A stretch of 64,000 bases of DNA, taken from assembly GCF_041886205.1 (NCBI RefSeq), contig NZ_CP169029.1. One strand, written 5' to 3'. Position numbers and translations under genes: made by a program. Numbering within the stretch: the stretch's first letter is position 1; the number at the start of each line of letters is the position of its first letter. Below the pieces are notes generated by a model. The model saw only the letters and a list, made by a program, of their open reading frames with translations, was not told the origin of the DNA and ran no database searches. Below, piece after piece: positions 12,876-13,568 of the stretch. The stretch is from Escherichia coli. Lineage in GTDB: Bacteria > Pseudomonadota > Gammaproteobacteria > Enterobacterales > Enterobacteriaceae.

Positions 12876-13568
12876 ATGCCACATCACATTGTTATTGTTG
12901 AAGATGAGCCGGTTACCCAGGCGCGATTACAATCTTACTTCACTCAGGAGGGGTATACCGTTTCCGTTACAGCGAGCGGTGCCGGGCTGCGGGAAATTAT
13001 GCAGAATCAGCCGGTAGATTTAATTCTGCTGGATATCAACTTACCCGATGAAAATGGCCTGATGTTAACCCGCGCCCTGCGAGAACGCTCAACGGTGGGG
13101 ATTATTCTGGTTACCGGACGCAGCGATCGGATTGACCGTATTGTTGGGCTGGAAATGGGCGCAGACGATTACGTCACCAAACCGCTGGAACTGCGCGAAC
13201 TGGTAGTACGGGTGAAAAATCTGCTCTGGCGAATCGACCTCGCGCGACAAGCTCAACCGCACACTCAGGACAACTGCTATCGCTTTGCCGGTTATTGCCT
13301 GAATGTGTCGCGCCATACGCTGGAGCGGGATGGCGAGCCGATTAAACTGACCCGCGCAGAGTATGAAATGTTGGTGGCATTTGTGACTAATCCGGGCGAA
13401 ATTCTCAGCCGTGAGCGTCTGCTGCGTATGCTTTCTGCCCGTCGGGTGGAAAACCCTGACCTGCGCACCGTCGATGTGTTAATTCGTCGTTTACGCCATA
13501 AACTCAGCGCGGATTTACTGGTGACACAACATGGCGAAGGTTATTTCTTAGCCGCTGATGTGTGTTGA
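12876..13568 (+). CDS. torR: TorR, OmpR-family response regulator
   Basis: 230 aa, receiver domain plus winged-helix; divergent from torC. Confidence 0.95.
   Translation: MPHHIVIVEDEPVTQARLQSYFTQEGYTVSVTASGAGLREIMQNQPVDLILLDINLPDENGLMLTRALRERSTVGIILVTGRSDRIDRIVGLEMGADDYVTKPLELRELVVRVKNLLWRIDLARQAQPHTQDNCYRFAGYCLNVSRHTLERDGEPIKLTRAEYEMLVAFVTNPGEILSRERLLRMLSARRVENPDLRTVDVLIRRLRHKLSADLLVTQHGEGYFLAADVC

Follow-up and report, generated by a model that had tools for sequence, protein, structure and literature searches.

The convergent genes torR and torT of Escherichia coli share 28 bp at their 3' ends, and this overlap is probably a passive product of gene compaction whose length is locked by conserved torR codons and whose attendant read-through is unavoidable, low-level and curbed by Rho. 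On this explanation it would be an ordinary tail-to-tail overlap rather than a dedicated regulatory device. The torT frame stops where the invariant Gly-Tyr codons of torR (GGY-TAY) read TAA or TAG in antisense, and the length would stay locked at 28 bp wherever torT enters torR in the same phase. Transcription of the torR strand enters antisense torT and, as published bicyclomycin data suggest, is ended mainly by Rho about 0.4 kb downstream; a leaky hairpin-U5 closer to the torR stop may contribute weakly, and the effect of convergent transcription on TorR and TorT levels is likely to be small. The coding overlap is already annotated and the transcript overlap already catalogued, and there is nothing new in the feature itself. 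The addition made by the present analysis is a codon-level reason for exactly 28 bp in several families. A full-text literature search returned no paper treating the overlap itself, the torT paper of Jourlin et al. (1996) lying outside its reach.

The window, that is, the whole stretch of DNA analysed, comprises 64,000 nucleotides of E. coli contig NZ_CP169029.1, and its relevant features are collected in Table 1. The preliminary description had reported a 28 bp overlap between the 3' ends of torR and torT, and direct reading of the sequence, the ORF listing and RefSeq all agree with it. The torR gene ends in GGT TAT TTC TTA GCC GCT GAT GTG TGT TGA, with the TGA at 13566-13568, and torT ends, on the other strand, in CAA CAC ACA TCA GCG GCT AAG AAA TAA, tta at 13541-13543 being its stop in reverse complement. 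RefSeq assigns the same CDS ends to a strain with 100% identity across the region (torR 3077-3769 +, torT 3742-4770 -), and the overlap is likewise 28 bp in K-12 MG1655 (torT 1056261-1057289, torR 1057262-1057954). The tor region was found in 5412 of 5426 complete E. coli genomes. Both are genuine genes, having homologues with matching C-terminal ends: TorR matches the solved TorR receiver domain 1ZGZ (E 4e-73), and TorT matches the Vibrio TorT structure 3O1H (E 3e-70) in an alignment that stops at residue 332.

Table 1. Coordinates of the tor genes, their shared segment and other features of the window.
Feature	Position	Strand	Description	Basis
torA	9028-11574	-		ORF listing and annotation
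torA/torD overlap	9028-9031		4 bp, same-strand	
torC	11574-12746	-		ORF listing and annotation
torC/torA overlap	11574		1 bp, same-strand	
torR CDS	12876-13568	+	OmpR-family response regulator, 230 aa	ORF listing, RefSeq, PDB 1ZGZ match
torR/torT overlap	13541-13568	both	28 bp in both CDSs	sequence read
Tandem stops at torR end	13566-13571	+	TGA-TAA	
torT CDS	13541-14569	-	periplasmic TMAO-binding protein, 342 aa	ORF listing, RefSeq, PDB 3O1H match
A5-hairpin-T5	A5 13571-13575, hairpin 13595-13631, T5 13632-13636	+	inside torT CDS; candidate terminator	
Promoter-like site	13626-13654	+	TCGGCA-17-TAAAAT, 9/12 matches; antisense to torT	
C-rich, G-poor torR-strand RNA	13650-14070	+	antisense to torT	C/G 1.3-2.5 in 80-nt windows
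torS CDS	14652-17396	+	torR strand; antisense torT lies between torR and torS	ORF listing, RefSeq
Extra DNA between cspH and gfcA	20328-21583		about 1.1 kb, relative to strain LHM10-1	
Hairpin after tRNA gene	39554-39576		perfect 9-bp GC-rich stem, dG -16 kcal/mol	
tusE/yccX overlap	40826-40829	tusE +, yccX -	4 bp shared by the CDSs	

The tandem stops at the end of torR read TGA-TAC in Citrobacter and Salmonella. The two same-strand overlaps within the tor genes, torA/torD and torC/torA, are of the usual translational-coupling type. Elsewhere in the window, the extra DNA between cspH and gfcA contains two overlapping minus-strand ORFs of 102 and 288 aa that resemble the OrfA/OrfB of IS3-family transposases; K-12 has a different insertion sequence (insA-4/insAB-4) near this position.

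The length of the overlap can be read from its codons. On the torR side it comprises the third base of Gly222, codons Tyr223-Cys230 and the stop, and on the torT side the third base of Tyr334, codons Gln335-Lys342 and the stop. The torT stop is thus made up of three bases of torR codons, the third of Gly222 (GGT) and the first two of Tyr223 (TAT), and any GG(T/C)-TA on the torR strand gives TA(A/G) on the opposite one. Gly222-Tyr223 is part of GEGY, the motif that closes the winged-helix domain, and is invariant in all 25 TorR orthologues recovered. In each of these 25 loci, overlapping or not, TorR ends with H-G/S-E-G-Y followed by seven residues and a stop, which lies a constant 8 codons past Gly222-Tyr223. 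The constant 28 bp follows from this fixed TorR C-terminus together with an antisense stop within Gly-Tyr.

The torT stop is correspondingly uniform, with TTA or CTA at its position in 16/16 loci that have the 28 bp overlap. In a small sample of lineages that are not independent, the Gly222 codon was never GGR in the overlapping loci (0/16, all GGY) and was GGR in three of the nine others, counts that are consistent with a lock of the torT stop by this codon. Frame analysis indicates that, were the torT TAA lost, the next in-frame stop would come 83 codons on and the overlap would grow to 277 bp, and this distance is what keeps the torT stop in place.

The shared segment appears to cost TorT little. 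Residues 335-342 of TorT (QHTSAAKK), encoded opposite the last eight torR codons, lie beyond the conserved periplasmic-binding-protein fold: the distant homologues retrieved by the representative search align only to residue ~332-335, the Vibrio TorT construct that was crystallized stops opposite residue 332, and the tail after FRPVY varies in both length and sequence. The composition of this tail mirrors TorR, its Thr-Ser (ACN TCN) being the antisense of TorR Asp/Glu-Val (GAN GTN) and its final Lys the antisense of TorR Phe/Leu. Because the TorR C-terminus is constant with or without the overlap, TorR is the constrained partner and the TorT tail follows.

The third codon positions of the two frames coincide throughout the overlap; position 13553, for example, is the third base of both torR Ala226 and torT Ala339. 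Among 15 distinct orthologous 28 bp sequences, the shared wobble positions were variable at nine of nine sites, against three of eight for codon position 1 and three of eight for position 2. Such variation is the signature of purifying selection on the protein with the wobble left free, and the shared wobble allows both proteins to be kept at little mutual cost.

Our comparison of Tor loci extends this picture across families. The TorT alignment was built from the representative search, the protein homologue search having given only near-identical E. coli TorT, and was used to fetch 80 loci, one genome per species, in each of which TorT, TorR, TorS and TorC were located. The 28 bp overlap was found in 16 loci belonging to Escherichia (E. 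coli, E. albertii and E. whittamii), Citrobacter (three), Salmonella (arizonae and diarizonae), Providencia (two), Pragia and Budvicia (two) of the Budviciaceae, and Parendozoicomonas, whose TorT is only 42% identical. Other arrangements occur as well. Serratia sp. H1w has a 21 bp overlap in another frame, with the stop derived from a Leu CTA codon; Edwardsiella hoshinae has a 4 bp overlap and three other Edwardsiella have an 8 nt gap; Colwellia and Amphritea have gaps of 19-53 nt; and in ~55 Vibrio and Photobacterium loci TorR is absent within 5 kb of torT. The overlap itself is dispensable for Tor systems. The retention of exactly 28 bp down to 42% TorT identity could alternatively mean selection for the overlap itself.

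Two further observations concern individual loci. In a Colwellia MAG (locus 4522-4574), torR and torT do not overlap and are separated by a spacer of ~50 nt with a 9-bp hairpin (CAAGTAGCA...TGCTACTTG), whose A/T-rich flanks give it the look of a bidirectional terminator; this arrangement is missing from the enterobacterial loci. The tor loci of Providencia are as similar to those of E. coli as are those of Citrobacter (TorR 85-90%, TorT 71-72%). For Morganellaceae these are high values, suggesting that the entire tor cluster was transferred horizontally.

The occurrence of an overlap of this size calls for no special explanation. A reading frame that runs antisense into torR from its 3' end encounters its first stop at 21, 28 or 65 nt, according to phase. 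Loss of the convergent spacer should therefore leave the coding regions overlapping by some tens of bases; the torR/torT overlap is no more than chance would yield. Convergent overlaps in bacteria have been attributed to 3' extension following the loss of a stop codon, or to loss of the spacer (PMC4161906, PMC2716372), and E. coli has 75 such overlapping pairs (PMC4161906). Of the eight annotated convergent pairs in the neighbourhood, two share coding bases: torR/torT (28 bp) and tusE/yccX (4 bp). The yccX-tusE pair also adjoins torT-torR in the published excludon list.

It had also been proposed that transcription of each gene must enter the other. This is borne out, as the stop codon of each gene sits at the far edge of the overlap. 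Each mRNA includes its own stop codon, so the torR and torT transcripts are complementary over at least 28 nt; and because the overlap is forced by stop codons, no pair of full-length mRNAs can end before it on both strands. Mutual read-through also fits published data. The torT-torR pair is among 165 convergent excludons that ExcludonFinder (2025, PMC12288877) detected in 50% or more of the MG1655 RNA-seq sets analysed. Adams et al. (2021, PMC7815308) report Rho termination on the torR strand at MG1655 1056830 (-), in a region that they class as antisense to torT; its Rho score is 4.34, with p = 2.2e-5 (Supp. file 2). K-12 and the window align here without gaps at 98.5% identity, which places this region at window position ~14000, 432 nt past the torR stop.

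[quoted passage not shown] Recomputed from these four counts, downstream coverage relative to upstream rises from 36% to 156% with the inhibitor, a change to be read against counts in the tens and a downstream window that extends 150 nt into torS. The torR-strand RNA opposite torT is rich in C and poor in G (Table 1), as would be expected for rut-like Rho loading. Both checkable features of a Rho-dependent terminator are present, that of read-through being known here solely from the literature.

The preliminary description went on to argue that both genes lack space for a terminator of their own. This was overstated, since terminators can sit in the CDS of the partner and Rho acts further downstream. 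One intrinsic candidate for torR does lie in the torT CDS, the A5-hairpin-T5 element of Table 1, whose hairpin-T5 portion falls 27-68 nt past the torR stop. In the window strain the hairpin has a dG of -18.1 kcal/mol and a z-score of -3.55, against only -10.8 kcal/mol and -1.05 for the K-12 version. A hairpin of matching register folds in six of nine relatives, 81% of its cells being paired versus 25-52% for slid controls, with five pairs altered on both sides, and comparable hairpin-U matches occur in the window at 0.31 per kb per strand. On the other side, RNAalifold did not recover it, and its U-tract is partly dictated by TorT Lys-Asn codons. The element might act as a weak, leaky terminator for torR; it cannot serve torT, being placed upstream of the torT stop.

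Other searches for termination signals gave little. A consensus terminator scan found none near the overlap and two inside torT, against 2.6 expected by chance; folding of ~180 nt on either strand gave unremarkable z-scores; Rfam returned no family match; and no terminator-like element was seen on the torT strand within 200 nt. The Term-seq tables of PMC7815308 list no discrete 3' end for torR or torT, which low expression could hide. Tor entries are absent from the SMRT-Cappable-seq supplements, which hence give no torR or torT 3' end, and from the transcriptional-interference supplements. As a separate observation, the perfect hairpin at 39554-39576 lies directly after a tRNA 3' end (...CGCCA), has T-rich tracts on both strands and is probably a bidirectional terminator.

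The same read-through bears on the strongest of the alternatives, in which the pair is a functional convergent excludon: transcription of torR or torT would lower expression of its partner, either because polymerases collide or because the RNAs pair and are cleaved, and the amounts of response regulator and periplasmic sensor partner would thereby be tied together. We regard this as unlikely, while giving it more weight than any other competing account. The listing of torT-torR among the MG1655 convergent excludons and the Rho-limited read-through of ~430 nt into antisense torT are what it would lead one to expect. So are the strand-specific reads of the wild type, with sense/antisense values of 9.07/3.28 RPM for torT and 17.8/1.76 RPM for torR (Huang et al., PMC7373196); in this one data set antisense torT reads amount to about one third of the sense reads, which is non-negligible for a very weakly expressed gene. 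Double-stranded RNA captured with p19 was detectable over both torT and torR, though low (PMC7373196). Convergent torR/torT adjacency is moreover retained in Enterobacterales, Colwellia, Amphritea and Parendozoicomonas, and, as the TorT:TorS ratio sets torCAD behaviour (PMC6814406), even a small cis effect could matter.

Against a functional excludon, overlapping CDSs with any co-expression lead automatically to an excludon call; the transcript overlap that defines the class is known for torR/torT from the literature, namely Table 1 of PMC12288877 and the Rho region in antisense torT, and is also forced by the coding overlap. Sense reads of torT and torR were no higher in the rnc-14 and rnc-38 mutants, at low counts and in one condition (PMC7373196 Table S1c). 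Both genes are weakly expressed, and collisions should therefore be rare. The comparative data point the same way: Edwardsiella, Serratia, Colwellia and Amphritea lack the overlap or have another form of it, the Colwellia pair is insulated by a terminator-like hairpin, and in Vibrio and Photobacterium torR is not linked to torT. Nor is any phenotype on record. As a separate observation, the promoter-like site just past the hairpin-T5 could be an alternative source of antisense torT reads; such sites in the region are no commoner than by chance, numbering three against 2.5 expected. For torS, the wild-type reads of Huang et al. (Table S1c) are higher in antisense (21.4 RPM) than in sense (15.4 RPM), with the antisense falling in the rnc mutants, although the strand column of that table seems inconsistent for the tor genes, which makes these torS numbers provisional.

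A broader proposal treats the whole arrangement, torR and torT convergent with torS on the torR strand, as a cis-regulatory module in which read-through depresses torT and perhaps feeds torS. We consider this quite improbable. If it were true, Rho-limited transcription past torR, driven by its autoregulated promoter, would adjust the TorT:TorS ratio and hence the level and noise of torCAD.

A Rho-gated non-contiguous operon is less probable still. Here some torR transcripts would cross torT, feed torS and oppose torT, shifting the TorS:TorT ratio. Gene order and strands fit this idea, and so does the gain in coverage past the Rho region under bicyclomycin, as the downstream window extends to the start of torS; by the same token, however, part of that signal may stem from torS itself. 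Moreover, torS is served by a separate promoter under IscR control, located in the torT-torS spacer (PMC6814406, PMC10845959), the torR-torT-torS triplet is outside the three non-contiguous operons reported for E. coli, and no transcript spanning torR and torS is documented. Finally, an annotation artefact, in which one frame had been mis-called and no true overlap existed, is ruled out, because stop codons set both 3' ends independently of the choice of the gene caller, the frames are open to 13541 and 13568 respectively, and close homologues of both proteins end alike.

A compaction-type overlap locked by torR codons, which we continue to favour, has practical consequences of its own. Edits at the 3' end of torT or torR, such as fusions, deletions and tags, change the other gene; a published torT-lacZ strain also carries a torR deletion (PMC6814406), for which the overlap may be the reason. 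The locus is, in addition, a textbook case of a fixed convergent overlap, with a stop made from invariant codons of the partner and a shared wobble. Were functional coupling to hold instead, it would mean an extra level of control in cis for a signalling system in which the sensor-partner ratio controls phenotypic noise.

Several known systems resemble the torR/torT arrangement in part. The non-contiguous operon type is represented by menE-menC/ytkD of Staphylococcus aureus (described in PMC12288877). As in that type, torR and torS lie on the same strand, belong to the same pathway and are split by an opposite-strand gene of that pathway, torT; unlike it, Rho appears to halt most torR read-through, and torS has its own promoter. 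An excludon consists of overlapping transcription of opposite-strand neighbour genes (concept of Sesto et al. 2013; E. coli map in PMC12288877). The torT and torR transcripts do overlap and the pair stands in the published E. coli list, but the functional hallmark of an excludon is mutually exclusive expression, often through RNase III, and the rnc-mutant data for torT and torR, at low counts and in one condition, give no sign of relief. The likeness to Rho-dependent antisense termination (PMC7815308) lies in a bicyclomycin-sensitive region in antisense torT that follows C-rich, G-poor RNA. The torR-strand read counts are only in the tens, and the downstream window takes in the start of torS.

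Ju and co-workers are said to have described, in 2019, bidirectional intrinsic terminators between convergent genes, formed by a hairpin flanked by an A-tract and a U-tract. The A5-hairpin-T5 element shares this layout, and the Colwellia hairpin lies in a true spacer; the E. coli element differs in being within the torT CDS, in its weakness in K-12 and in having no Term-seq 3' end. The closest match is the class of convergent overlapping gene pairs, both defining features of which torR/torT displays: the 3' coding ends of opposite-strand genes share bases, and both genes are real. Its overlap, too, ends at the first antisense stop. Its 28 bp are longer than the 4 bp of tusE/yccX, and it departs from the class in that its length is fixed across several families, because the torT stop is built from the invariant Gly-Tyr codons of its partner.
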